Assembly: GCA_051294905.1 (NCBI GenBank)
Contig: CM119371.1
Location: forward strand, 23,562,001 to 23,626,000
Reading direction: 5' to 3'
Origin: Botryllus schlosseri
Taxonomy: Eukaryota
DNA length: 64,000 bases
The notes under the pieces were generated by a model. It saw only the letters and a program-made list of their open reading frames with translations, was not told the DNA's origin and made no database searches. Every line of letters starts with the position of its first letter. Position 1 is the first letter of the stretch. The position numbers and the translations under genes were made by a program. Of the stretch, positions 23,432 through 59,497 are shown piece by piece.

Positions 23432-25058
23432 GTGAGTTTCTATAAAACATCTTAATGGATTGTTTGACCTACATGATAGTAATGAAATATACTCTTACTT
23501 CAAGCTTATTCTAACTTATTATACTACTTCCTAGACCGGTTATATTTTAAGCTACTTCTACTTGATAGATTTAAGAATGCCTAATTATTTACATATTTGT
23601 GAATCTCAACTTTTACTTCTTCTTGAGTAGTAACTGCAAGCTTACGAACAACAATGACTATTTTGACCACTCTGGTTCATTCATAAATTTTATCCTTCGG
23701 TGACTTCCCACTTACTTCTAGCCACGGGAGGCGGATAGCTATTGGCTGGGCAGATCCAAGTAGCAGGGTAGATCCAAGTAGCTTTGAATCCCGATATGCC
23801 TTTGCCATACCGATTTTACCTGCCAATCTCAATCTGTAGTCGACAGTCCCTGTCGTCATCAAGTAAAACGTTCAAAAGTAACTCGACGCGATGTACCCGC
23901 AAACCAATTAGTCGACTCGGAATCCAGTTACCTCCTTGAATTCACTCACTCACGAAATTCGAGTACGTAGTATTTCGACTGTAGCAATGCATTTCAACCT
24001 GTGTGACGCTTCGCACTAGTGCGAATGAAGGAAATTGCATTGCGAATGACGGAGGTGGTGTGAATGAAAATCCGGATTGAGTGCGAATGAAAATCGTGAA
24101 TACTTTTAATTTTTCTGACGTGGAATAATTCACATAAACGTAATGCGAAATTCAAGGGCAGTGTAACTTTTGTGATTGCGACGCAATTGTAAGTTGTTTG
24201 ACTTACGACGCACCACTAATCGTAGGTCTCACAGAGTCACAAGCCGTAGTGCATTAATATTTCCGCCCTATAATTATTACGTAACCAAAAGCCTGGTTTG
24301 GAAGCTGTAGCTACACACACAATTGTGTAGTGACAGTCATACAGTACGTCAGCCCGTCTGAGCCTGCGACAGGCTGAAAAATGACGTCAAATTGACTTTC
24401 TGCTTTCTTTCGCTGAACAATCGTCGTATTTTTGTATTAACTGTTCAATTACCGCGAGACATGAGAATAGTAGTAAATACCACTATTACAGACTCACAAT
24501 CGCAAGTTACTGTAACGCAAATTTTTACCCTTCCACGGGTTAATAAAGTATGGACCGCAAGCGGTTGGCCTAAAAGTTTGGGCCGACACTCGACACGGTG
24601 CCAGTGTTATCTGTTAATATGTATATGTAATTTGTTGAACTGATTGCAAAATATCCTGCGATAGTATTTGCATATCCAAGGTCACTGTGTTGGGTACTGT
24701 AGCCAATAAGCGAGACACGCAGAAATAACACTTGATCATGGCAATCGCCCGACCTTTTCAGCTAGTTTGTGCGAATGAAATTTATTTCACAAGAAAAAAG
24801 GTTGAAAAGCACTGGACTATAGGATCAAGGGATGTCAATACCGTATCGACGAAATAACTACTAGGTTGCATGTTGTTTTTCTTCTGAGGCAATTTCGGAA
24901 TTAATCATATTGATGCATGCATTGCTAAAGTGCTGATACTATACCTGAACGACCAACTACCAAGCTACTAATAAGGTCATAGCTGTGTTGTGGATATAGC
25001 ACATAAATAAATATATCGAATCTGCATCATCATCTTATTTCCGACTATTTTTTTTTAG

Positions 25059-26197
25059 AAATGTCATTTCTAGCAAAGACTAGACTACATCTGCGAAACG
25101 AAGTTGGGGAAATCAAAATGCCAGCTCGTCCCACAACAATGGTGATAGATATGCAAAACTCTACAGACGCCAATCCGGAAAATGGAAGTCACGGTGCTAG
25201 CAAAACTATATTTGGTCGCGACGTTGAAGAAATCTCTTATGTCCAATTTCACGATCCCTTGAAGGACGAAGTTCCCAGACATGTTATGATTCTCGGAGAA
25301 GCGGGAGCGGGAAAATCGACCATTTCAGCAATGTATTGTTCGGCTGTGGCCGATGGAAATGTTGAGACGCTTCGTAGTGTAGAACTTGTTCATTACGTCC
25401 AGGCAGCCCACCTTCATAATAATAGTACCGCAAATGCCTTTGATCTCTTATTCACCGAACAAATGACTTGCGATCCTATGACTGAGCTGACTGAAAACGA
25501 GAGACGTGCTGGAGCAAAGTGGTTAAATCAGAATTCTGGCAAGCTATTATTGACAATTGACGGCCTTGATCAGTGCTTAGATAACTTTGCTGTGAATAGT
25601 CTACCGAAAACCGACCAACAAAACAATTCAAGAATCAGTAAAACAATTGCTAAGATCATGGGCGGTAACATATGGCGTGGTGCATACATATTGACTACGT
25701 CGCGGTGGAATATATACTGGAACTTTACTGCCGAACAGAAACCTAACAAAGTAATCGGCATGAGAGGACTTGACGACGGAAATCTAAGATTGGCGGCATC
25801 AGGACACTCTGTTGATGGTGATAGGATGATAGATCAACTCGTAGATACTTCGCCGAAATTATTGAATTTGTGTCGAAATCCCATGTTTCTTAAGTACATG
25901 ACGAATGTATTCCGAACCAATTCAGAAAACTTGCCTGATTGCATTTCTGGTCTCGTGTCAGCATTTTTTCGAAATTTTTTTCGCATGTCTTCTGAAAAGT
26001 ATGGTGATATCACGAGACTTGCGTACCATGGAATGTTGAAAAATTTATTCGTTTTCTCCCGATGTTACTTGGAAAACTTGGGAATCAATCCAAAAGACCT
26101 GAATGACTTCTTGTCTGCTGGAGCAAATCCGGAGAAAGATCAAGATATCGCCAATTCATTTGACGATATTTTTGCGTTCTCCCATCAAACGATGCAG
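25059..26197 (+). CDS. NLR-like gene, NACHT NTPase exon
   Basis: Poly-T AG acceptor at 25058; Walker A GEAGAGKS, Walker B LLLTIDGLD, sensor-1 ILTTSR, LCRNPMFL, LAYHGM, FSHQTMQ|GT. Confidence 0.92.
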
Positions 26198-26409
26198 GTC
26201 AGCAACGTTTATGTAACCAAAATTTCCCAATTCGATAATTGCAAAGCTACCCGTTCCAAACACTGTGCAAGTGGTAGCAAATAACCAAGGGTAGGCATTT
26301 CTAGAACATCGTTGTGTCGCAATCATGGAGATTGACGCAGCAAGTAGTACGGCTGACCACGAAATTGTTCTTAATGTTTGGTTAAATTAATATTAATCAC
26401 CCATCTGTG

Positions 26410-41277: not shown

Positions 41278-41788
41278 CTATAGATAACTAACCTACGGAT
41301 AGATACGCAACACCCGCCGTCACGCTTGCTTGCTCGGAGGGAAATACTGTTCAGCAATCTGAACGCAACGTAATTGCTAATCCCATAGCTGACGACCCGA
41401 GCGCTCAAATTAAATATAGTCGATCTCATTTGAAAGCTATTGTCGCACTGATTCCGGGTCGTCATCTATGGGATTAGCAATAACGTTGCGTTCAGATTAC
41501 CGAGCGGTATTTTCCGGAAATGTGTCCAGTAACCTTCGTAGCTTTATACTATAGGTTTCATATTCTACGATGCCGCCAATCACGGTTTCAAGGCTTCAAC
41601 AGTGGAAATTAGTGTATGGAAACTATTCTTCTCGTTGATAAATTAACTTTCAGTGGCGAGAAGCGTATAATTTCGGTACTCGAATAAATCGTCTTTTACT
41701 ACTCGACTCGAATCATTCAAATTAGTACGCCATTCAGATTTGAGTACTCGAATCATTGTGCCCAGCCCTAGTCGTAACACACCAGGAT

Positions 41789-43380
41789 GGGGAAGCGAGT
41801 GGCGCAGTTGGTTACGCACTGCAGTCACGACACCAATGGAAGTGGGTTCGAATCCCGGTTCTGACCAACTTTCTACGTGTTGGAGGTTTCTCTGGGCTCC
41901 TCATCGCCGATATCACTACTACGGCAGTGCATTGATAAGCCTAGATCGAAAGCCGGCAGCTGAGACAACGCTGGGGGTAGGTATGAGGGGGGTAGTGGGG
42001 CTCTGCTACTCGGCTTTGTTCCCCAGGACGATATCTGGCGATAACTACTCCTGTGCTATATGAAGGAATTACAATTCTTTGTATATCCCTGCCACTTGAA
42101 ATCGTGAATTCGATGACCGGCCATATAGTATGAGCGTCTGTGAGTAGGGGCTCTGGCGTTAGGGGCATACTCTGTTTTGGTCGGCAGTCTGAATTAGATT
42201 GACCCTGACACGGTCATATTTAGGGCAATGGAGGAGGAAATGCTCCAAGGTTTCTTTGATCCCGCATGCATCACAAAGGCCACTTTGATGACATTAAATT
42301 CTGTGTAGATGACCGTTCAGCCCACAGTGACCAGTCTGCAGTATAATTAGGATTAAAGATTCCCTGCGTGACAAATCGATCATTGGGTTTATGTCCCTGA
42401 TATCTCCATTAATTTTTCTATGTTGCGAGTCGTCGTCATGGGTATTCATGTGATTGATCCACTTTTTCCGACATAATCGGCAATATGGGATTTAATTTTC
42501 TTCATAGTATTTTTTGCTGAAGGTTTTGATCTCGCGCAAGTGGCATCAGTGCTGCTCTTCGTGCGATTTTGTCGGCTTTTTCGTTGCCGCGGATACCTTT
42601 ATGGGCAGGGACCCAGACCAAAACAACTTCGATCCTTAGTGCATTTAATTCAGATCCTAGGAGGAGGATATCGGCGATGAGTTCATTGTCCGGAGAGCAA
42701 TTTCGAATCGCCACTAGACTGCTCTGGCTGTTCGAAAAAATAGCCACACGACTTTCCGGCGTACCATTGCGTTTAACCCATTCTAAACTATTTCGAATGG
42801 CGTTCAATTCTGTCGAGAAGACGGATAAGTGACTGTCGAGGGTATAGCTGTAACAGACGTCTCTGTTCTCAACGAAGAAACATGACCCACAGCCCGATGC
42901 GTTTTCCGAGCCATCAGTATAAATTCTGGTGCTCCCCGCATATTGCTCGTGTATGTATTCTTCGGTGATTTGTTTTGCGAAAGTGGGATGAACATCTCTC
43001 GATAATAACGTAGCTAGGCGTAAGTCTACGCCGATCTTGGGCTGTGGCCATGGTGGCAACGGAGACTGTTCGTAATTCTGGACGATTGGATCTTCAAACA
43101 TATCCGGTCCTGCTAACATGTTGAAGGTTCGCAATGAGTGGTTGCCGGGAAAAATTTCATGGCATGAGCCAGTTATTAAGTATTTGTGGGGCGATTCACA
43201 CAACGTTGGGGGCGCGTGCTATAGTGAGAGTGACTGAAGATTGACTGGGAGAAGAGAATGAAAGCAGTGCCCAAGATTACGAAGGGCAAATACACTATGG
43301 ACATTATCATATTTCGTGTAGTGGCAGCACACGGCTTGAAAAAAACTATAAACGCCACTGTGTAGTACCAATAATTACAA
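41789..43380 (+). mobile_element. tRNA-derived SINE interrupted by a LINE
   Basis: Head GGGGAAGCGAGTGGCGCAGTTGG...GGTTCGAATCCC as at 5269; 3' part resumes at about 43200; TSD TAACACACC(C)AGGAT at about 41775 and 43381. Confidence 0.8.
41978..43199 (-). mobile_element. 5'-truncated I/Nimb-clade LINE (RNase H plus CCHC zinc knuckle)
   Basis: IYTDGS...VFSTELNAI...WVPAHKGIRGNEKAD (RNase H); downstream LQTGHCGLN..CDACGIKETLEHFLLHCPKY; TSD ACAACG(C/T)TGGGGG at 41965-41977 and 43200-43212. Confidence 0.88.
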
Positions 43381-45893: not shown

Positions 45894-47390
45894 GCTACAA
45901 GCTGATGTGGAATGGGAGAAATGTCGACACGGAATCCCAAAAATTGTACAATATATTTATCCCAACGTCAGTTAAAACCTAATTACTTAGTACGGTATAA
46001 CCCGTACTGGACTCAGAAGTAAGCGCAACATTTAGAGCATAGTTATCTGAGCTTCCCGTCAATACATTCTGCAATTTCATTGTCCTTGCGACGCAACGTG
46101 ACCCGAGATATATTATAATTTTTCGTACGAGCTGTTGTTATTACTATATCATGTGATAAGACATATCGTTCGGTCATAATTATTACCTAGAAGTGCACTA
46201 AACTTTGAAAGACACCACTACCAGCAGGTTTACCGATTAAGCTATTTGTGAATCGGAGATAAGAAGCATGCTAAAACGTGAACTAGATTGGAAGAATTTT
46301 AGACTCGGAATCCTATCAATCGGGTATTCGATTTTTGCATCGCTAGCTAAAACAGGAAGTGCTTTAGAAATGTGTTTTTTAATAATGTTGGGCCACATCG
46401 GATACCACACTGTAAAAAATAAAAACCTCGATTTCCCGCGAAATGTTTGGAAGCACGGTAGCCAGATATTTCGTGGTAATGTAACATTACCGTGAGTCAA
46501 TGTAAATCTAACTTACACTCGTCCGGTAATCTCACTTTACACGCCAGACTGTAATGTTACAGTCACCCACGGTATATTCAATCTACATGTTCTCCTGTAC
46601 ATTCACGACCGAGACTGTAATTTTACCGCCTACCTACATACATGCTGTCCGTGTAAATCAGGATTACATACCAGCTTGTAAATTCACGTACATCCATACC
46701 TATCGCAAAAAGTTCTTCACACTCCCAAAACGACATTGGAACAAACTGTATATTCACGATGAAATGGTTATCGATGGAAAAGTATTGCTGCTGGAGGTAT
46801 AATTCTTCTTTAGGAGACATGAAGTAACACGAGTGGGCTCAATAAAAAGTGAATTAATTCCAACACCGGCCAAACTTCCAATTGTTTATTTTTCTCGTCC
46901 TCATTCCTTCTGTGTAACTAGCCTTGCAGTTCCACTAAAAAGAATTCACGCGTAAGTCGCTATATTAACAGAGTTGCTAACCTGGACATGACATTATAAA
47001 GACTAAGGGTGGATTGCACAGATGTCGAATAATCCCTAATCGCCGATTAAACGTCAGTCATCATCACGACGCGTCGAACGGGCCAAAACCGGCCCACCTC
47101 CAGTTGACGAACTCCTTATAAAAGGTTTTCGATAGGTAATTTTACTGACAATTCTTTAAAATTCGGAGTAGGAGATGTATTGTTTCCATTTGTGTTTATC
47201 GTGACTCTCTGCGTGCTTCATACTCACGTTTTAACGCTCGTTTTGAACTGAATAGACAAATTTTGATGATCATGAGAAACATGGATTTATTGTCTTTTTA
47301 GTAATTCCCAACAAACTAACCATATCCAAAGACTGCTGTACGTCATCAGCTATACGAAAACGACACATGGGGAACACTGCTCGGCAAATT

Positions 47391-48616
47391 CAGAGGTGGT
47401 CAAAGTAGTCAAGAAAGCTACTCAAGTAGAAGTAGAAGTAGCGACGAAAACATCTACTCAAGTACGAGTAGAAGTACTTCTCCCACGAGCAACCTAAAAC
47501 TACTTGAAGTAGAAGTAGAATTTGCTGACTTTAAAAGTACTCAAGTAAGTAAGTAGTTGTGAAAACGATCCTAATTCGTTCACATGGATTGTAAAAAGGT
47601 GCAAATTGAGCTAAGCGAAAGGTGACGAGCTTGATTCATATTGATGCATACCAGCAGGTATCCAATTTTTGATAGCATAAGCATTCGTCCACATCGTTGG
47701 ATGAAAATGATAGTATTGATATGGAAATGCGATACTAATCCTCTGTTTACTCAAAGAGTACGTTTTAGAAAATATCATGGTATTGCGCACTACGGCCTGT
47801 AGTTTAGTCGAAGAGCAATACGGAGAAGTTGTGTTGGATACGGTGTAAACACTTTGTGCGATTAGTAAACGTTAATATAAATATGGTGGACCGTAAAAAT
47901 GCTATATTGTGTAGCTTTAGCATGTACGTTATCGAGACAAAAGAACTGATATTAATTAGAAATCAAAATATATGGTACTGAGTATTGTAAGTGAAATATA
48001 AATCTGAAAACGGAACATGTTTTTAAAGTCTGTAGTCCGGGAAGTTTGGAAGGTTGATATGCAAAAACAGCTCTGAAACTAAAAAAGAAGTCAGAGTCCA
48101 CTTTTTCAGATGAGGACACGCCATGGACAGCTAGATTACGATATGATAAGTAAATGCTAGATTGCGAAACATCATTTTCAAACTTTATGATAAGCCATTT
48201 ATACTGTGATGAAATATTTGATATGGCGAAGGGCGACAATGCGGTATGAACGGAACCACGCCAACCAGCTACCTAAATTATATTCGCCGATACTTTCGTG
48301 AAATTATACTGGATACTCCGCATTCAGCGCGCTCGAAGCGCGACAAAAATATTGGGATTAACTCAACTTTTATGAAAATTAAATGTCGTTACTCCGTGTA
48401 AACAGCCCCGAAATTTCTCAGGCTATCTTCCTGATTGGAGGATTAAACTACTTCTACTTGACAAACTGAAAATAGCGAAAAGTAAGTAAGTAGATCACAA
48501 AATGTTACGAAGTAGAAGTAGTGAAATTCATATCTACTTGAGTAAGTTCCAGAAGTAGAGGAAAACTACTTGAGTACTTCGAAAAAGTAGAAGTACTTCG
48601 TTACTGACCACCTCTG
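47391..48616. mobile_element. hAT element inserted in the left palindrome arm
   Basis: TIR CAGAGGTGGTCA / TGACCACCTCTG; TSD GGCAAATT; AAGTAG subterminal repeats; empty site in the right arm at about 53728. Confidence 0.9.
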
Positions 48617-49537
48617 GGCAAATTCCTAATCTGAACCGCTCCTTAATCAATCTGCAATTGATTTTTATAGCACTGGTATATTTATTATCACTTTTCAGAC
48701 CTTATTCCATCTCAAATTGAATGTTTGAAACATCGGTATGACTACGATAGCGTATTCGATAGTCACACGAACAATGGTGAGTGCATTTAGGACATGAACT
48801 TTTTTAATATGTTACTTGCATCCAATTTTAACTTGCAACAGTCTGGCTTTGCTACTGTGCAGGTGCCTGAGCAGTATCGTTGGCCATATTATTGTTAGGC
48901 TTGCAACTCCACTTGAAAATTTGACTTCGAGTCAGGATTTCTCATACCGTATGTCATACTGAAGCAGTGACTCGAGTCAAATCCATTCATCCTATTCCAA
49001 ACAGGTAATTTTGACTCGAGTCAAATCATGATTTTAGTCATCCATCCTTTCTATGTTTTGCTAGGTTAAGATAAACCATGAAAAAATAATTTGAAAGTAA
49101 CTTTTCTAATGTTAACTTTTCTAATGTATTTCTAACTAAAATATTTAAATTAAATCTTTATTCAGATGCATATTCCGAAGATTCAGTTTGCACCTTCATC
49201 ATCGACTAGGATGTGAGGACAGAGGCTTTTTCTTCATGTCACAACAGCGATAGTAAGTTGAGGTACTAATTTGAAATCCATATGAATCATGTTGGTACTA
49301 ATATAGCCACACGAATACTTCAAATAGAAAATTGCGGGTTGTTTTGATTGACATTAACATTGCTCTATTGCACTTGAACTCTATTGAACCAATACAACTG
49401 TTAACTATAGTTTTCTTGCAGCAAATGAAATTGCTGCCCTTTTCGTTGTTGATGGCGATGTGACGCTTCCTTCAGTTCCCTCGATAGACTTCAGGATGGA
49501 ACACCAGACCGGTAAGTGTTAGCATTAGCATACAACG

Positions 49538-49840
49538 ATGGTGATGCAACCCACAGTTTATTCATTACTACATTCAGATATACAAGATGAAACAGAACAC
49601 AAAAAGCTCAGCGCCAATTGTCTCGAAAAAGAGAGCCAGAATTCCAAGTTTGGAAATACCAGGTGTGTTGATGAAAATATTCATATTTTACCTATAATGT
49701 TGGTGAACAAAATGTGGTGTTCAGAAATGAGCGTCCTGGAAATGGAAAAGGAACAGCATGATATCAGAATGAAATATTTTGAGTTACAGATGCATGTCAA
49801 GTACCAGAAACTGGAAATTGAAAAAGAACTGCATAATTGA
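49538..49840 (+). pseudogene. Harbinger Myb/SANT-like protein, C-terminal coiled-coil remnant
   Basis: LEMEKEQHDIRMKYFELQMHVKYQKLEIEKELHN; mirrored at 52547-52831 on the minus strand. Confidence 0.55.
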
Positions 49841-50256
49841 GAAAATACAGCAACGAATCGAAATAGCACAAAAACCAGACTTGGACAACTAGTTAATTGG
49901 CTGTATAATTAGAATAGTAAGTGCAAATGACAGTAGTATAATTCTAACCGAATTTCTGGTTTTGCTGAAAATTCTATAGTAGAACTCTACAATACTAAGC
50001 GAGTTGTGCAGATTCAATTTTCAAATATTCAGTAATCTCTATTCTAATTTAATTGAAAAATAATTACTGTATCTATAATTCTATTCTAATTTGGAAAAAT
50101 ATGCAGCCATAATTATAATTATAGTCTAATTTTGAAAAGCTGATTTTCTAGGTGTCCAATTCTGACTACAGCACTGAATCTCGTAATAAAAATAATTGAC
50201 GAGGAATTGAATGTGTGGTTATTGGTGTTGAAACACGAGATCAAATACTCAAGACA

Positions 50257-50439
50257 TTACAGAGAAGTGATTTTGAACACACTGCGCTGAAGTTGTGCCG
50301 TCATGTTATCAGTGTCGCTAACCTCCAGCGTATATTCCAATGGATTTGCTCTGACTTTGACCAATCTTCTTGGTACTCTCTCTTCAGCTAGGCTCTCTAA
50401 CATCTGGAGGGTAGCAAGAACATTGACGTATGGATCCAT
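50257..50439 (-). pseudogene. Internally deleted Harbinger (HARBI1-like) transposase
   Basis: N-terminal RVPRRLVKVRANPLEY fused to a C-terminal piece, read in the right-arm copy (about 52064-52112) as ARLQRRQIVQNHFSG; DDE core absent. Confidence 0.6.
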
Positions 50440-53400
50440 TGTTATTCTCAGTCGATATTGCACTATATTAATGTAGGCCTAGCTCTCTATAAAACATGTT
50501 GTATTGAATTTTATGGTTGACCAAATTCTTGATAAACTGAAGTGAGGTTTGGCTGTCAACAAACAAGATTACTCAACTGGGTAACAGCAGATAACTTTGC
50601 ATTGCAAAATTGTAACATAAATGCATTACTATTTGTACAGCAGTTGAGCACATGTATGCACATGACTTATTATATGATAACATCGTCACATTGCACATTT
50701 GCACAACATTTAGATCCTTGCAATGGCTGAAATTTACTTCTACACTCCTGCAGAGCCAATTGTCATTGGTATGGAGAAATCAAAATCGTATGCAAATGTG
50801 TATGCTACAGAATCTACACAGACGTTTTGTATGAACTCAATTTGTATATCTTCACATTGGTGAAGCGGCTATCACGACTAATGCACCAATAAACGAAAAA
50901 TAAAATTCTATTTGAAAAGTATCTATCTAGTTCTAGATATCCCTGAGTAATGAGATAAATGCTCTGCAATATACGAAATTTGTAGTAAAGTTTCTGGCAT
51001 AGCGATACCGGTATAAGGCGATGATTTCGGTACGCTATTCCTACAATACAGCTGATTGCTAACGTACGTCATTTGCGTCGATTTGCGTCAGTAATCCGCG
51101 ATAAGATAACTCGCAGACGAATCCGCATCTGTACCACAGAGTCACCTGAAGACGTACGTTAGAAATCAGCTGTTTTCGGTCGGTGGCGATATGAACTGTG
51201 TCGTCATAAGGGAGAGATGCGCTCTTCATAGATATGTATGTTTAGTTGAAGTCATGTGCGTATAGCAGCTAACTAAACTGTTGCTACTGCACAGTGTAAG
51301 GTTATGAACGTCAGAACAAAAGTTTTGTGGTTATGAAAAGAGGTATTGTAGTAATAGGGCACCAAAATCATCGTCTTATACCGGTATTGCTATGCCAGAA
51401 ACTCTACTACAAATTTCGTATATTGCAGGACATTTATCTCATTACTCAGGGATATTTAGAACTAGATAGATACTTTTCAGATATAATTTTATTTTCCGTT
51501 TATTGGTGCATTAGTCATGATAGCCGCTTCACCAATGTGAAGATATACAAATTGAGTTCATACACACACATTTGCATACGATTTTGATTTCTCCATACCA
51601 ATGACAATTGGCTCTGCAGGAGTGTAGTAGTAAATTTCAGCCACTGCAAGGATCTAACTGTTGTGCAATGTGACGATGTTATCATATAATAAGTCACATG
51701 CATACATGTGCTCAACTGCTGTATAAACAGTAATGCATTAATGTTACAATTTTGCAATGCAGTTATCTACTGTTACCCAGTTGAGTAATCTTGTTTGTTG
51801 ACAGCCAAACCTCACTTCAGTTTATTTATCAAGAATTTGGTCAACCATAAAATTCAATACAACCCGTTTTATAGAGAGCTACATTAATATAGTGCAATAT
51901 CGACTGAGAATAACAATAGATCCATAACTCAATGTTCTTGCTACCCTCCAGATGTTACAGAGCCTAGCAGAAGAGAGAGAGTGCCAAGAAGATTGGTCAA
52001 AGACAGAGCAAATCCATTGGAATATACCCTGGAGGTTAGCCACACCGATAACGTGACAGCACAACCGAGCACGACTTCAGCGCAGACAGATTGTTCAAAA
52101 TCACTTCTCTGGAATGTCTTGAGTATTTCATCTCGTGTTTGAACACCAATAACCACACATTCAGTTCCTCGTCAATTATTTTTATTACGAGATCCAGTAG
52201 CCTATGCTGTAGTCAGAATTGGACAACTAGAAAATCAGCTTATCAAAATTAGACTATAATGATAATTATGGCTGCATATTTTTCCAAATTAGAATAGAAT
52301 TATAGACACAGTAGTTATTTTTCAATAAAATTAGAATAGGGATTACTGGATATGTGAAAATTTGGAAATTGAATCTGCACAGGTCGCTTAGTATTGTAGA
52401 ATTATACTGTAGAATTTTCAGCAAAACCAGAAATTAAGTTAGAATTATATTACTGGCATTTTGCACATACTATTCTAATTATACAGCCAATTAACTAGTT
52501 GTCCAAGTCCGGTTTTTGTGCTATTTCGATTCGTTGCTGTATTTTCTCAATTTTGTAGTTCTTTTTCCATTTCCAGTTTCTGGTACTTGACATGCATCTG
52601 TAATTCAAAATATTTCATTCTGATATCATGCTGCTCCTTTGCCATTTCCAGGACGCACATTTCTAAGCACCACATTTTGATCACCAACATTATAGTTAAA
52701 ATATGATTTTTTTCATCAACACACCTGGCTCTCTTTTTCGAGACAATTGGCGTTGAGCTTTTTGTGTTGTCTGTTTCATCTTGCATATCTGAATGTAGTA
52801 ATGAATAAACTGTGGGTTGCATCACCATCATTGTATGCTAACACTTACCGGTCTGGTGTTCCATCCTGAAGTCTGTCGAGGGAATTGAAGGAAGCGTCAC
52901 ATCGCCATCAACAACGAACAGGGCAGCAATTTCATTTGCTGCAAGAAAACTATGGTTAACAACAGTTGTATTGATTCAATAGAGTTCAAATTCAATAGAG
53001 CAATGTTAATGTCAATCAAAACAACCGGCAATGTTCCATTTGAAGTATTCGTGTGGCTATGTTAGTACCAACACGATTTATATGGATTTCAAATTAGTAC
53101 CTCAACTTACTATCGCTGTTGTGACATGAAGAACCAGCCTCTGTGTTCACATCCTCGTCGATGATGAAGGTGCAAACTGAATCTTCGGAATATGCATCTG
53201 AATAAACATTTTATTTAAAAATTTTAGTTAGAAATACATTAGAAAAGTTATTTTCAAATTATTTTTTCACGGTTTATCTTAACCTCGCGAAACATAGGAA
53301 GGATGGATGACTAAAACCATGACTTGACTCGAGTTGGAATAGGATGAATGGATTTGACTCAAGTCACTGCTTCAATATGACATACGGTATGAGAAATCCT

Positions 53401-54009
53401 GACTCGAAGCCAAATCTGCAAGTCAAGTTGCAAGCCTAACAATAATATGGCCAACGATACTGCTCAGGCACCTGCACAGTAGCAAAGCCAGACTGTTGCA
53501 ACTTAAAATTGGATGCAAGTTCCTCTGTCGTTGGTTGTAACATATTAAAAATGTTTATGTCGTGAATGCACTCACCATTGTTCGTGTGACTATAGAATAC
53601 GCAATCGTAGTCATACCGATGTTTCAAACATTCAATTTGAGATGGAATAAGGTCTGAAAAGTGATAATAAATATACCAGTGCTATAAAAATCAATTGCAG
53701 ATTGATCAAGGAGCGGTTCAGATTAGGAATTTGCTGAGCAGTGTTCCCCATGTGTCGTTTTCGTATAGCTGATGACGTGCAGCAGTCTCTGGATACGGTT
53801 AGTTTGTTGGGAATTATAAAACGACAATAAATCCATGTTTCTCATGATCATCAAAATTTGTCTATTCAGTTCAAAACGAGCGTTAAAACGTGAGTATGAA
53901 GCACGCAGAGAGTCAAGATAAACACAAATGGAAACAATACATCTCCTACTCCAAATTTTAAAGAATTGTCAGTAAAATTACCTATCGAAAACCTTTTCCA
54001 AGGAGTTCG

Positions 54010-54290
54010 TCAACTGGAGGTGGGCCAGTTTTGGCCCGTTCGACGCGTCGTGATGCATACAACTTTTTTGCTTTTCGATTCAAATTTTTCAATACATTCT
54101 GGATTTGGCCAGTTGTACGGCTGCACGCGCAGGACCAGTATTCATAGCTGCGTATTTCTTACCGATTACATCTCAGGCCGCATCTTTTTGCTTTGCCGTC
54201 AGTCTTTTTGTCTTCTTTGGTTTCAATATATTCTTCTATCAATTCAATTATTCTAAACTTTTCCTGTCTGTTGCAATTTTCCGTCCTCGT
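54010..54290 (-). pseudogene. Harbinger Myb/SANT DNA-binding domain remnant
   Basis: With frameshifts reads IE..KKTD..KQKDAA*DVIGKKYAAMNTGPARAAVQL..LKNLNRKAKKLYASRRVERAKTG, typical of MSANTD/Myb_DNA-bind_5; mostly deleted from the left arm. Confidence 0.7.
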
Positions 54291-56799
54291 ATTTTATTTC
54301 CAAAGTATACTATCGAATTCTTACAGTGTACAGTACAGTCTGTAAAAAATGTCATACCGGTAATCATAGCATAATGTACTATCGGCTGTGGTAGGCCCAC
54401 GCCCATAATATGCGCCAACAGTTGTAGTACTGTCTGAGTACAATGTTTTCAGCTAATACCGCAACTGCACGTCAGAGCATCCAGTTAACACCATCTCAGT
54501 ACCAAATACTAGTGTACCTGTAGCCAGCCCAGACCGCAGTCAACGCGAAGCACACAGCCGATTAACTTTCTAGACACCTCGCTCGGCGGATAACATTTGG
54601 CCGATTAAAATTCACCGATTAGTGGCAGATCGGCATCTGTGCCACGGAAGCCAGCCGATTACTGACGTTTAATCGGCGATTAGGAATTAATCGACATCTG
54701 TGCAATCCACCCTAAGACAAATAGGTTAACAAAAATATAACATGTTTCGAAGTACGGCACTGGTACATTCTGTGATGACGGCTCCGCATTTTACTGATAT
54801 AGCAGAGATTCATGACTTACTTTATCTAATGTATTGAAGCAAAAGGTTCCTTATTTGAGGTGGCATGTGTGCCAAATCCAGCAGTGGATGAAAGCATCTC
54901 TATGCTATGGCCCGAAAATTATATTAACAACAGTTTCAACTCCTCCGCGGCGGAGTATGTGGTGTCACAGGTCACTATATAAGTCGACTAATATCCCAAA
55001 ATAGAACAGAGAATGAGGCAAATGAAATATTTCAATCATGAAATCAAAATCATCCCGGTGGTGTGCACAGTCGTAGATATTCACGGTAACAAATACTATG
55101 TAGTACTGTACCTTTTACGACGCGTATCCCATTCAGCATTCCTAGGAATCTTCAACGATCGCGTCCACTTTCTTCAAGCACAAAAAGCTTCGTTCGTTAC
55201 AGCCTTTGCTCAAATCTCAATAATGGCCACTGGCCAGACGTCAGACGACACTCAGTCAGACGATTTCGAAATAAGTGATATATTCATCCGCTCACATGTG
55301 CCACCAATAATATTTACTGGCCACGATATAATGTTTGATCCAGGTCGTTTTTTCCATACAGAAACATTTATCATTACGTATAGTCCCTTTCTTTTCCATC
55401 TAATTTCGTATAAATTGATATTTATTCCAAGCGTTGATCACTACTTACTGTACTTACTTAATCAGACGCTGCTTGTGATGTCACAGTTGTGCGTTGGTTG
55501 TTTACTACGAATCTCAGAAAACCAGTAACGCGTAACGGTAACCTAATGTAACCTATTACAGATCGCGTTGTCCGCCATTGACAAATGGTCAACTGAGCAT
55601 GCGGTGCAGACATATCTAGTTTACCGAACAATGTTATAGGCCCAAAACTGATTTTCAAACTTATCAGCCCTATCCGTGACAACGAATGTAAGCAGCGAGA
55701 CCGGACCTATAGCCATAGCCTTATAATATAATATAATGGCTATGGTGTAACCACATTTGCTACGATTGTCAGTTGTTTCTTGTACCCTACTATGTACTAT
55801 ACTGAAATTGGTACTAGGGCCAACAATTTCCGTATGACAGACCAGTTTCGCGAACGAGGTCGAATCAGGTCAAATGACCACGAGAATGATATTATCAGTA
55901 ACATTCAGTTCCACGTATACATTGGCTGCAGCGATTTTCAAGGTAATCAATCTTGCCAATAGCCTGGTAAAGTGCAGTAACGAGTAACTGTCAGTAATTT
56001 TGCGAAGAAAAAAGGTAATATTACTCATCAAAATGTAAAATTACCAGCTACGCACAGTTATTCGCTGCGACCGGTAATTCGTTGTAAAATTCACAGAGAT
56101 TTCCCAGTAAATCTACCAGAATTTTTACAGTGCAGAGTGATGATTCTATGCTGAAGGCAGTCTTAGGTTTTGAGTGGAGTCGACCATTGGGATCACTAAG
56201 TAAGGCGTCATAATAGTATGAATGAAGCAGAAAGTTTCAATGTACCGTTTATGACAGTTTGTGACTTTTAACGATAAGACATGGTCAAACCGATTTTTGC
56301 TGGTTATTTTTACCTAATTTGGGGTGCTGAATCCGAATCTGGCGTTACTTTTGAAATAATATATATGTTCACTTTTTTTACCTTTTCGGTGTACTGAAGT
56401 AGATTTTGCCTACTTGCATTACTTACTGACGTGTTTATGTTTTCAGACTACATCCGCTTCTACTTGTATAGTACTTTGGATGAACTACATACAATTGTAA
56501 ATTGGATTTTGGAATATAAAAGTAGTGATTTAATAATATTGCACCAGTGTCACGAGTTAAATTGTCATTGCAATAGCGTGAAATAGCCCCGGAATCAGGG
56601 TAAGTGGGTAGGATATATTTGCCATTATTCTACCTATTCGTAACGTTATAATGGCCACTTTCATTAACCCCGGAAGATGCATCCTGAGATTTCGTATACA
56701 GCCACCTCTGAGCAACTGCGAAAACTATGCGATCCCGACCAAATAATCATTAGACACATTCTGACGTAGTACTTTTCATACCTTTCATTAATGTGTTCC

Positions 56800-57950
56800 A
56801 CTTGAAGTATATGTACGGACTGCCAAAAACCTATAAAACCAACGTGCCCGTTCGACCAATTCTTTCTATGATTGGATCGGCCCAGCACAAGCTCGCGAAG
56901 TGGCTTATCGGAATTTTGGAACCAGTACGTTCCATGTATGATTCGCATTGCGTCGATGATTCGTTTACATTCGCGCACAAGATGAAAACCACCGACCTTC
57001 CAAACTGGAATATGTTTCTCGGTTCTTATGATATCGTTAACCTCTTCACGAACGTGCCGCTGAAGGAGACCATTGATATTTGAATTCTTTACACTCGTCT
57101 TTAAAATTCACATTTGAAAAAGAGCGCGCTAACTCGTTACCATTCTCAGACGTTCTAGTGGAAAAACGGGGTATTAGCTTTGTCACTTCGGTTTACCGGA
57201 AGCCAACGTTTATAGGGCATTATATACGCTGGAATTCTTTTAGCCCGAATCGCTGTAAACTAAATTTGATTGGCACGTTGGTGCACAGAGCCTTGGTGAT
57301 ATGTTCGGATGTAATATTAAACGCGGAGCTACAATATATCCGCAAAATTCTAATCGATAACGGGTACCTCGAACACATCAACAAGAGTTCTGTGGACAGA
57401 AAACTCAGTAATTTCAATCCCAGCAAATCACAAAACACGAACACACGGTCTGAGGAGAATGTATATATAGATTTACCGTGGCTGGGCCCCATCTCTTCCC
57501 GTTTTGAAAAGCAATTGATTTCTGCTGTAAATCGCTGTTACGATAACGTAAAAACTAATGTTGTGTTCACCACCAAACAATTGCTTCCTGCAACGCGCAA
57601 AGATGTTCTTCCTGCTTCTCAACAAAGCAATATAGTCTATGATTTCAAGTGCCACTGTGATTGTTGGTACGTGGGAAGAACAACTCAGCGCTTGCAGGAA
57701 CGCATCAAACAACATGTCCCGAGCGTTATCAGATCGCGCACATTGGACTCTCGCGAAGATGCAGCCATAACTGATCTGCGATTACTAGAACGTAATCAAG
57801 CCATGGCTATGAGCTCTGCCATTGGCAAGTATTTGGCTGAGAATGCAACTTGCGGTAAAAACTATCGCGATGAAAGATTCTATATATTAGGTAGAGGTCG
57901 CACTCATCTCCATCTGTCTGCACTGGAATCGACTTGCCATATCTTCAAAT
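56800..57950 (+). mobile_element. Penelope-like retroelement remnant (RT plus GIY-YIG endonuclease)
   Basis: MYGLPK..VPVRPI..LAKWL..SYDIVNLFTNVP, then LKFTFEKE..LPFSDV..VYRKPT..NIVYDFKCHCDCWYVGRTTQRLQERIKQH; catalytic YxDD segment deleted at about 57080. Confidence 0.9.
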
Positions 57951-58019
57951 GTTGGCGGCAATCAGGAAATTAGGGTGTCAGTGCCGACACGTTTTTGGCG
58001 TGTGTTCACTCAGTGCCGA

Positions 58020-58463
58020 CACGTTTTTTGCACGTATTAAATCGATGAAAGCAGTTATAGCCCTCGCCGAATGTCTGCAAGGCAAGCATCATTTTGAATA
58101 CTTGGTAACTGGCAAATTGGTATCCGACCCGATTGAACCTCGATTTGGTATTAACCGTCAAGACAATGGTGGAAACTTTTTCATGTCGGTCAAGCAGCTC
58201 CTCCTGGCAGAAAAAAAATTCGTTGTCTCAGCTTGATTCAGCAACGGGCACTTCAAACTGCATCTCGAATTGGTGACTCTAACCCATTTTTTGCCACCAA
58301 GACTGCATTCGAACCCGAGGAAAATATCCAATAGCTTGCGGAGTTTTTTGATCAAGTTTCATAGGATGAACTGGAAGATGGGGCTATCGCGTTTTTCGTC
58401 AGTGGCTATATAGGCCGTGCCATCTTTCGCCGACGGAAGTGCTCTGACTGCGAGAAATTGTCA
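58020..58463 (+). pseudogene. P-element/THAP9-like transposase C-terminal fragment
   Basis: FEYLVTGKLVSDPIEPRFGINRQDNGGN and later FFVSGYIGRAIFRRRKCSDCE; cut by the LTR at 58464. Confidence 0.7.
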
Positions 58464-59430
58464 TGTTCTTGATCTTGTTTGCTAACTCATACGACGAGGC
58501 TGCAATGTGAAATCAGTATATTATACGGCAGAATAACTTAAAGCCAGCGACACGATCCAGAGTTCAATTAAACGAAAGACCTAGATATCATAATACAAAG
58601 GGTTTAAATACCAGCACGACACACAAGGAAATAATGATTGGCGGTAATTACCAACGTAAATACACGAACATAACAGTCCTCCCCTGTAAGTTAAACGGTG
58701 CAGGGCGATTCACGTTGTCCGATAGAAATCAGTTTGTCTCATATTTCTAACGGGATAACGTCTACCCGACGTACGAGCAAGAATAGCAGCAGGACGTTGT
58801 GCCCTATTACTGACCAATGGTTGCTCAGCTTGTGGCTGTTGAGGCTGAACAACTTCTTGTGTGGATGTATTATGGCCGGGTGAAATCAAGCGTGGTTGGA
58901 GTTGGATTTTATGCCTTCTCCAATACCCATGATCTGTTTGTAAACAACACGTCCAAGTATTTCCGTCACCACGCCAACAACCCGCTTTGGTCCGCGTCGG
59001 TAATTGCGAGCGTAGACCGAGAGACCAATCTCGAAATGAGTGACTGATTGTGTAGACTTAACGGGTTAAAATTTGTCGAAGGGCCAGCACAAACTTAACA
59101 AATTGCGCGGCTGCCGACCATGTAAAATCTCGGCTGGCGTTTTCCAGTCCATGCCCGGGTGCGGTGCACATTGATACGAAGCGAAGTGTTTGGAGCGCGA
59201 AGTTGAAATCTTTTCGCCCGTCGCAATTTTGTATCAATCCAGCTTTTAAGGTCTGGACGAAACGCTCCGCTTCCCCGTTCGAGGTAGGGTGAAAAGACGG
59301 TGATACGATATGGCTGATTGCCAAATTCGAACAAAACGTATCGAATTCATTTGATGTGAATTGCGGTCCGTCATCCGTGACGATTGTTACGGGCAAGCCT
59401 TCGATAGAGAAGACTTCTCTCAAAGCGTTT
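58464..59430 (-). mobile_element. Second Gypsy remnant (3' LTR 58464-58675 plus integrase fragment)
   Basis: Colinear homolog of 9597-10620; IVTDDGPQFTSNEF..HPTSNGEAERFVQTLK. Confidence 0.88.
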
Positions 59431-59497
59431 ATTACATAACGATTTTATTACCAGACCATTAACGTTCAATGATGGTTGCGTTTACGTTTGTTTACAC

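Follow-up and report, generated by a model that had tools for sequence, protein, structure and literature searches.

In the 64,000-nucleotide stretch of Botryllus schlosseri DNA analysed here (the window), two long inverted arms face each other, raising the question of whether one end of a transposon was duplicated into a foldback, as an earlier note had proposed, or whether two elements came to share one site. Self-comparison within the window places the arms at 47007-51049 and 51343-54712, and the E-value of 0.0 for the main blastn match between them rules out chance. Their alignment comprises 2,709 aligned bases, with 2,572 matches and 137 substitutions (5.1%; 74 transitions and 63 transversions), as well as 21 indels, and the longest stretch identical between the arms is 103 bp. 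Differences number 9-20 per 300 columns, and no gradient of identity along the arms, which would be a sign of ongoing gene conversion, was found. One 15-bp duplication excepted, the arms hold no tandem arrays, and there were no Rfam matches within 46000-56000.

The palindrome is bounded by terminal inverted repeats (TIRs) and a target-site duplication (TSD):

46900..47006, no strand: host sequence on the left, belonging to an abundant host repeat that resumes at 54713 (loose ends in sequencing runs)
47004..47006, + strand: left TSD, TAA, with C before it (C-TAA-G) (sequence)
47007..47028, + strand: outer TIR, the element's left end, 22 bp identical to 54691-54712
54691..54712, - strand: outer TIR of the right copy, likewise the element's left end (sequence)
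54713..54715, + strand: right TSD, TAA, followed by G (sequence and runs)

The multi-kilobase inverted arms with matching termini and a TAA TSD, as first described, are borne out by the alignment and by the outer ends, which begin GGG and are identical for 22 bp. We compared the locus with four of 24 listed public sequencing runs (X1, X5, X6, and X23), using a reference without the left arm. Among the loose ends listed, those before 54712 in 2 X5 contigs and 40 X23 reads resemble the left flank, and one in X23 before 55112 (358 reads) resembles 46908-46935. Brought together, the flanks give an empty site with a single TAA, within one interrupted host repeat; the claim that a deleted Harbinger-like element is present as two inverted copies at one target site thus held. 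The C and G flanks together would be expected in ~4% of cases by chance from base composition, a figure that concerns one insertion site only. CTNAGGG is not enriched in the window (15 occurrences versus a mean of 12.2, the chance level). Metagenome contigs gave 0 matches to the TIR pattern and 3 to the flank pattern, all judged to be chance.

The one TAA duplication and the clean empty site, together with both intact outer TIRs, would fit a dimer that was built elsewhere, by any route, and then inserted here once as a ~7-kb composite with two left ends; the two TIRs of mPing act similarly (PMC9921582). Indeed, a dimer that formed elsewhere and then moved here is expected to have the same appearance. 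However, a single TSD also results from double insertion, so that a single TSD around a palindrome is no proof of unit movement. Among the 15 joints listed for the four runs there is no palindromic-centre joint, while monomer-type right ends are listed, and PIF/Pong excision and reinsertion drop with size (PMC10288884). We therefore consider movement as a composite unlikely.

The centre of the palindrome bears directly on the foldback proposal, and its parts are as follows:

47007..51146, + strand: left copy of a non-autonomous element, more decayed, without its last ~51 bp including the right TIR (sequence and runs)
51151..54712, - strand: right copy, inverted, less decayed, without its last ~127 bp including the right TIR (sequence and runs)
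51049..51050, no strand: site at which the left copy lost 171 bp (corresponding to 51172-51342; sequence and run joints)
51050..51146, + strand: right subterminal region of the left copy (X5 and X1 contigs continue via 27 letters into the TIR)
51147..51150, no strand: 4-base filler at the true axis, part of neither copy (sequence and run joints)

Contigs from X5, X6, and X1 reveal that the 293-bp “spacer”, given as ~290 bp in the earlier note, is not unique DNA but the element's right subterminal region, present twice and truncated both times, with the two right ends joined at 51146/51151. The joints listed include two between opposite strands, 51058/51164 and 51050/51172, and one from 51146 to 54687/54689 with 27 letters between. 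In other copies in the runs the right end is normal and bears a TIR, and the monomer right end matches 54689-54712. The true axis lies at 51146-51151 with an unpaired loop of 80 bp (51071-51150), which appears to be 293 bp because the left copy lost 171 bp. Since both copies reach within ~51 bp (left) and ~127 bp (right) of the normal right end, the locus consists of two near-complete ~3.7-kb elements joined tail to tail and not of one end folded back. The inner TIR pair, named beforehand as the observation that would overturn the foldback, is absent, but the subterminal sequences leading to it are present on both sides. The TSD between the copies is not kept, and the filler occupies the centre. 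This filler resembles TAA plus one insertion, a post hoc observation given no weight. Treating the whole spacer as one right end that shares words with the left terminus gave a weak k-mer count (8-22 of 178 background stretches were as good) and was replaced by the run joints.

No read or contig among those listed for the four runs crosses the centre in the window's arrangement, and several right-arm letters are missing from all four runs, as might be seen if two haplotypes or loci had been merged by the assembler as an inverted pair. The missing letters indicate that the locus may not be in those samples. The earlier argument from arm divergence stands in that a difference of 5% and 21 indels is unlike a read fold-back. 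Together the flanks also make up one host repeat, split in two and in the correct order, and the 4-base filler offers no overlap for an assembler to join. An artefact is, in our judgement, very improbable.

The two copies have decayed unequally, and two features mark the left one alone:

47061..47062, no strand: breakpoint of a 602-bp deletion in the left copy, with loss of its 5' region and of the greater part of the Myb-like domain (arm alignment)
47391..48616, no strand: hAT-like non-autonomous insert of 1,226 bp, left only (12-bp TIRs and an 8-bp duplication)

Both the left-only hAT-like insertion and the left deletion of ~600 bp had been correctly recognised. X1, X5, and X6 show normal depth across the 602 bp absent from the left arm (54056-54657), so the loss is on the left. 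The insert has TIRs that start with CAG, subterminal short repeats, and a duplication at 47383-47390 and 48617-48624; we take it to be hAT-like on general TIR and TSD rules. Polarised arm indels number ~15 on the left versus 3 on the right (p = 0.008), and in three gap-free X5 contigs, which take in 11 of the 21 indels between the arms, every one of these 11 falls on the left. The left copy is thus the more decayed by indels, while the asymmetry in substitutions is weak and inconclusive: private substitutions relative to X5 number at least 47 (left) and at most 29 (right; p = 0.05), and relative to X6, 44 and 41 (p = 0.83). Of 26 testable sites at which the right arm stands apart from nearly all reads, the left arm agrees with the reads at 24, and hence it is as if each arm had been drawn separately from the family; at the other 2 both arms share a letter against the family.

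These comparisons also bear on a single-event inverted duplication in place, whereby aborted re-replication or gap repair would leave two left-end-outward copies joined close to their right ends, as happens in Ac composite insertions, or a template switch would occur at a 22-26-bp subterminal repeat. The identical transposase deletion in both arms, the 2 of 26 variants common to them, and the lack of significant substitution asymmetry against X6 are compatible with such an event, and Ac killers form by fusing broken re-replicated ends (bioRxiv 10.1101/2020.01.07.897926). The indels, by contrast, are unequal between the arms, the empty site lacks any flanking inverted duplication or deletion, and the junction lies 76 bp past the short inverted repeat rather than at it. 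For aborted synthesis, it would moreover be a coincidence that the copies reach within 51 and 127 bp of the end of a 3.7-kb element. Duplication in place is thus quite unlikely.

The explanation that we favour, with moderate confidence, is a second insertion into the TSD of the first copy, followed by asymmetric central deletion. A first copy would have inserted at C-TAA-G and, given a G at the element's start and a C at its end, both ends would have recreated a CTAAG target. A second, probably later, copy would have entered the right-hand TAA in the opposite orientation, giving host-TAA-[L..R]-TAA-[R..L]-TAA-host, a nearly perfect palindrome. Next, ~181 bp at the centre (51 + 3 + 127), both inner TIRs included, would have been lost asymmetrically with 4 bases left in their place, stabilising the palindrome, and the left copy would have gained the hAT-like insertion and lost 171 bp and 602 bp. 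The locus has two nearly whole copies between a single pair of outer TSDs, as expected of a double-insertion dimer. DNA-transposon dimers, some of them inverted, arise when a second copy inserts into a TSD (McGurk and Barbash 2018, PMC5932611); 24 of 36 hobo dimers have junction deletions (PMC5932611), and perfect palindromic junctions gain small asymmetric central deletions (review PMC8701086). Double insertion would be proved by the central TAA and the inner TIRs; their loss lowers the proof and not the plausibility, as junction deletions are reported to be common in such dimers. Were the second copy instead inserted, reversed, inside the right subterminal region of the first, a transposase-made adjacent deletion would have had to remove the displaced right end exactly to the TSD. 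Nested inverted insertions occur in Drosophila (PMC5932611) and would likewise yield two ages, but two extra precise deletions would be required and no right-end remnant lies between 54712 and the host flank, making this route scarcely credible.

The copies entering into this favoured double insertion carry remnants of two genes:

47062..49840, + strand: remnant exons of a Myb-like partner gene, left copy (sequence)
52547..54300, - strand: Myb-like partner gene, right copy (sequence, intron reads, and an Atlas lead)
50249..50439, - strand: putative transposase stub, left copy (N- and C-terminal pieces fused; motif patterns)
51916..52122, + strand: putative transposase stub, right copy, 207 bp (sequence and run contigs)
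52181..52809, no strand: overlap of two convergent transcripts (AATAAA at 52181-52186, - strand, and 52804-52809, + strand)

A Myb/SANT remnant and a transposase stub had been noted in each arm. Remnants are indeed present in both, but the 602-bp deletion leaves the left copy only the end of the Myb-domain exon and the later exons, and the names have no significant database match. In the right copy the first coding exon (~53981-54290) is frameshifted and is followed by splice-bounded exons at 53111-53197, 52849-52938, 52725-52788, and 52547-52662. Splicing of the Myb-like gene is real, the intron 52789-52848 being removed in 5 X23 reads and one X6 contig. The start codon of the right-copy stub and its stop (51925-51927) are private changes (51918, 51927), while the fusion is spanned gap-free by an X5 contig and also by an X6 contig; the runs show that the transposase deletion was already present in other copies. 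The 3' read pile-ups in X23, on the Myb strand at 52250-52399 and on the opposite one at 52550-52849, stem largely from other copies.

The names Myb/SANT and transposase are presumptive, drawn from motif patterns and from the two-gene, TIR, and TSD layout. An Atlas search with the Myb-like product gave a weak lead (best score 0.85), with 10 of the 10 best matches having a family in the Myb clan. No Myb match was found in Pfam, PDB, or protein collections: Pfam returned 0 families for 5 of 5 short pieces, 2 of 2 further pieces yielded nothing beyond a sub-threshold DUF7438, homologue searches with short pieces gave 31 and 16 candidates, none scoring, and PDB searches gave 0 matches in one case and a single match at E = 1.4 in the other. 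One match among representative proteins, a repeat-rich protein carrying a bacterial SH3 domain, was judged spurious. The stub, a short query of 38-40 residues, found nothing relevant in protein searches, and its Atlas matches to epimerases were judged to be noise.

From its sequence features, the element is probably a ~3.7-kb non-autonomous Harbinger-like DNA transposon of the NuwaII group that has kept a Myb-like gene and lost its transposase core. NuwaII elements, a group of the PHIS (PIF/Harbinger-like) superfamily, have C-TNA-G targets, TIRs of 13-46 bp beginning with GG, and two genes, one a Myb/SANT partner (Han et al. 2015, PMC4482050). Here, the 22-bp TIR starts with GGG, and a 3-bp TSD in C-TAA-G is seen at both ends and in the empty-site loose ends of X5 and X23, at one site. 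The ~3.69-kb monomer plus a missing transposase core would come near the NuwaII mean of 4.7 kb (PMC4482050). By contrast, a member would be expected to have a DDE_Tnp_4 transposase of the Nuwa clade, and no DDE domain is left to place the element, only a ~200-bp stub; the TAA of this one insertion site also fits PIF/Harbinger proper (TWA).

The locus is most likely without function, although its intact outer TIRs might still allow movement in trans. As judged from its letters, its geometry is unfavourable for a hairpin or cruciform (a loop of 80 bp, another 171 bp of asymmetry, mismatches at 5%, and a longest identical run of 103 bp), and the long hairpin predicted by RNA folding of 50600-51800 (-749 kcal/mol) merely restates the inverted repeat. 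Poly(A)-primed Myb-strand reads of other copies end ~1 kb before the centre. X23 depth over 51050-51349 on the Myb strand is 0.3-0.4 versus 158 at the 3' peak, in a 3'-biased run whose reads carry other copies' letters and whose sample may lack the locus. Among the indexed runs, none from RNA is recorded as containing the locus, which says nothing about its expression. It is improbable that the dimer is a natural “killer” allele, with read-through from the promoter of the right copy's Myb gene or a host promoter giving a multi-kilobase hairpin that silences the family in trans, or a two-left-end composite spread as its own family, or both. As found, it is of minor importance, a tidy natural case of two inverted transposon copies joined at a trimmed centre, and a caution that a lone TSD around a palindrome does not establish movement as one piece. 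If siRNA from the locus silences its family, it would be a polymorphic animal counterpart of Mu killer. As a modest corollary, NuwaII families should be dimer-prone, since C-TNA-G elements with G-starting TIRs rebuild the target at both ends; if such self-regenerated CTNAG targets promote dimers, this would hold for NuwaII elements generally and would matter.

Foldback elements (Galileo, FB, Tetris) have long inverted arms and a short loop, as does this locus. They form dispersed families, however, in which the TIRs themselves make up the long arms and frequently contain tandem repeats, whereas the family members seen here have short TIRs and the arms lack any tandem array beyond the 15-bp duplication. 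MADF-only PIF/Harbinger derivatives such as Harbinger-1M_cIno have likewise kept a DNA-binding gene and lost the DDE transposase, but Harbinger-1M_cIno is of the nematode Turmoil lineage, 1.6 kb long, and shown to be active (bioRxiv 10.64898/2026.05.26.728016). The parts of that study drawn on here describe no inverted dimer of such elements, and none was found for Harbinger elements in the open-access literature. In maize, Mu killer and Ac killers are also inverted duplications of transposon sequence with like ends outward and a possible dsRNA source, but they hold partial 5' fragments and are transcribed through the centre, with siRNA and trans-silencing shown, and the Ac killers have large flanking duplications (bioRxiv 10.1101/2020.01.07.897926); the present copies are near-complete and 5% diverged, with no locus transcript seen in the four runs compared. 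The Drosophila dimers (P, hobo, jockey, and Rover) are mostly head-to-tail and often keep the junction TSD, whereas the present locus is a tail-to-tail pair of PHIS elements with the central TSD gone; in both, two copies of the same family lie at one site, and junction deletions that remove the inner TIRs, as here, are common among the Drosophila dimers (PMC5932611).

Self-comparison of the window resolved three collinear inverted blocks (47003-47062/54657-54716, 47062-47391/53727-54055 and 48618-51049/51343-53734), and global alignment of arm against arm found 2,572 matching positions, 137 substituted ones (5.1%) and 21 indels. The outer termini are identical over 22 bp and adjoined on each side by TAA, the target being C|TAA|G. 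Because self-comparison, arm alignment, termini and the left-only insert and deletion agree, the geometry of arms, termini and target site duplication (TSD) described in an earlier note is borne out. The longest run identical between the arms is 103 bp and divergence is uniform along their length; the earlier note took the divergence of the arms as an argument against an assembly artefact, and an artefact is very unlikely. A 602-bp stretch is missing from the left arm only, and the arms carry the following features.

47391-48616, left arm only: 1,226-bp insert with 12-bp inverted ends starting CAG and an 8-bp duplication
~53981-54290, minus strand: first exon of the Myb-like gene of the right copy, frameshifted
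~200 bp, opposite in direction to the Myb-like gene: convergent stub made of N- and C-terminal pieces

By the usual rules for terminal inverted repeats (TIRs) and TSDs, the left-arm insert is hAT-like. This non-autonomous insert has numerous short subterminal repeats at both ends, and no second copy of it was found within the 64-kb window.

Part of the stretch is contained in 20 of 24 listed public sequencing runs, and four of these (X1, X5, X6 and the single-cell RNA run X23) were compared with it over 51050-55549. Among the joints listed, X5 and X6 contigs follow the minus strand as far as 51164-51172 before resuming on the plus strand at 51050-51058, and X5 and X1 contigs pass from 51146 through 27 other letters to the TIR at 54687/54689-54712. 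The ordinary element is thus ~3,689 bp long with a normal right TIR, and what had been described as a ~290-bp spacer, while indeed the central stretch between the arms, is no separate spacer but the right end of the element present twice. Of the left copy's right end 51050-51146 survives, its last 51 bp being gone along with 171 bp immediately before the surviving stretch; the right copy is present from 51151 onward but lacks 127 bp, and four bases lie between the two. The TIR side of the X5 joint is 29 letters long, no more than a hint of TIR plus TAA without the flank of the dimer locus, at another insertion site. Among those listed, loose ends before 54712 that resemble the left flank occur in two X5 contigs and 40 X23 reads, and flank depth in X5 is 5-25 times element depth, indicating a host repeat interrupted once, with one TAA. 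This host repeat (46900-47006 and 54713-55549) is abundant, has many length variants and shows a strong X23 read peak at 55100-55249.

The exon at ~53981-54290 resembles a Myb/SANT-like domain in its sequence pattern, and is followed in the right copy by splice-bounded exons, the last of them giving a coiled-coil-like tail; splicing of the predicted intron 52789-52848 is seen in five X23 reads and one X6 contig. The ~200-bp stub consists of putative N- and C-terminal pieces of a Harbinger-like transposase. A Myb/SANT remnant had been claimed for each arm; in the left copy most of the Myb-like domain is lost. Pfam, PDB and three large protein searches returned nothing relevant to either name, so neither identity is confirmed by database; an Atlas search with the Myb-like query gave a weak Myb-clan lead (score 0.85). 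Atlas matches for the transposase stub were judged noise. The transposase fusion is spanned without a gap by an X5 contig (record 10) and also by an X6 contig (record 18), and the transposase deletion is therefore older than the dimer.

A single TSD thus encloses two monomers, both nearly complete and joined right end to right end, and double insertion is the simplest route to this anatomy. NuwaII elements are defined by a C|TNA|G target and TIRs starting with GG, according to Han et al. (PMC4482050), and the element, a probable member of the group, has both. An inserted copy with such ends would have CTAAG at either border, as can be seen at 47003-47007 and 54712-54716, and each TSD would thereby become a fresh target. 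A second, reversed copy entering the right-hand TAA would create a perfect palindrome around three bases, the centre of which would then have been trimmed asymmetrically, with loss of the central TAA that would prove double insertion. McGurk and Barbash (PMC5932611) describe dimers made by double insertion, some inverted; 24 of their 36 hobo dimers have deletions at the junction. A review (PMC8701086) reports that small asymmetric central deletions stabilise perfect palindromes and that spacers of 35-52 bp suppress their breakage. The same anatomy might instead reflect a dimer built elsewhere and moved whole to this site, which is improbable, or, with marginally less probability, a single event, re-replication or fold-back, of the kind described for Ac composite insertions (bioRxiv 10.1101/2020.01.07.897926); nested insertion with an adjacent deletion is far less probable than either.

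The arms have decayed unequally. Of the 21 arm indels, 11 fall within three gap-free X5 contigs, which assign all 11 to the left, and indel events, including the 602-bp, hAT-like, 8-bp and 171-bp ones, number ~15 on the left versus ~3 on the right (p = 0.008; two of the latter seen in the variant table and one inferred). The asymmetry in substitutions is weaker and less clear, with at least 47 left and at most 29 right against X5 (p = 0.05), and 44 left and 41 right against X6 (p = 0.83). Among the best 40 of 459 variant rows, picked by the tool as best supported and hence biased toward right-private sites, 32 fall in the right arm; for 26 of these the left arm offers a corresponding site, where it agrees with the reads in 24 cases and with the right arm in two.

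With strand convention in X23 fixed from spliced reads, depth on the Myb strand is highest at 52250-52399 (158) and amounts to 0.3-1.9 between 52099 and the centre, with one exception of 2.8 at 51650-51799. On the opposite strand the highest depths (142 and 87) fall within 52550-52849, and an AATAAA lies downstream of each strand's peak. The letters of these reads at listed sites are those of other copies (86/86, 174/175 and 196/196, with 160/185 and 132/171 at two more), so the signal is mostly expression of the family rather than of the dimer locus. From the opposite-strand peaks and the two AATAAA motifs, the family's two convergent transcripts appear to overlap by ~650 nt at their 3' ends (52160-52830; left copy, 49550-50190), so ordinary monomers may yield sense-antisense RNA without any palindrome. 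Within the overlap zone, 44 bases at 52235-52280 are replaced by 6-9 others in a family variant present in all four runs compared, which indicates several subfamilies.

Going by the palindrome review (PMC8701086), the 80-bp loop, the further 171-bp asymmetry and the 5% mismatch make it unlikely that duplex DNA would extrude a cruciform here; in yeast, fold-back of long single-stranded DNA is reported to tolerate up to 25% heterology (PMC10164571). For hairpin RNA to form, transcription would have to continue past the poly(A) site of the Myb gene, which lies ~1 kb short of the centre. The left copy lacks the Myb 5' region, and transposase promoters, which probably lie near the centre and point outward, would give same-sense transcripts. 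That the locus acts as an animal killer allele or a mobile composite is quite unlikely.

Elsewhere in the window, a 425-aa open frame with a P-loop (25007-26284, plus strand) is presumably NACHT-like. Motifs also suggest retroelement remnants at 9591-10756 (an integrase-like frame) and 58458-59436 (its second copy, at 58.5-59.4 kb), and at 42502-43218 and 57077-57973 (one frame RNase H-like, the other a C-terminal RT/GIY-YIG frame of Penelope-like type). Short self-inverted, MITE-like stretches lie at 4143-4457 and 41339-41515 amid many dispersed 100-500-bp repeats.

No described Harbinger inverted dimer was found in the open-access literature. The monomer, a probable PHIS element that keeps its Myb-like gene and has its transposase deleted, is in this like the MADF-only derivatives described from C. 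inopinata. The dimer resembles the double-insertion dimers reported in PMC5932611, with a centre that has been revised. The locus is real, and known processes explain the dimer.
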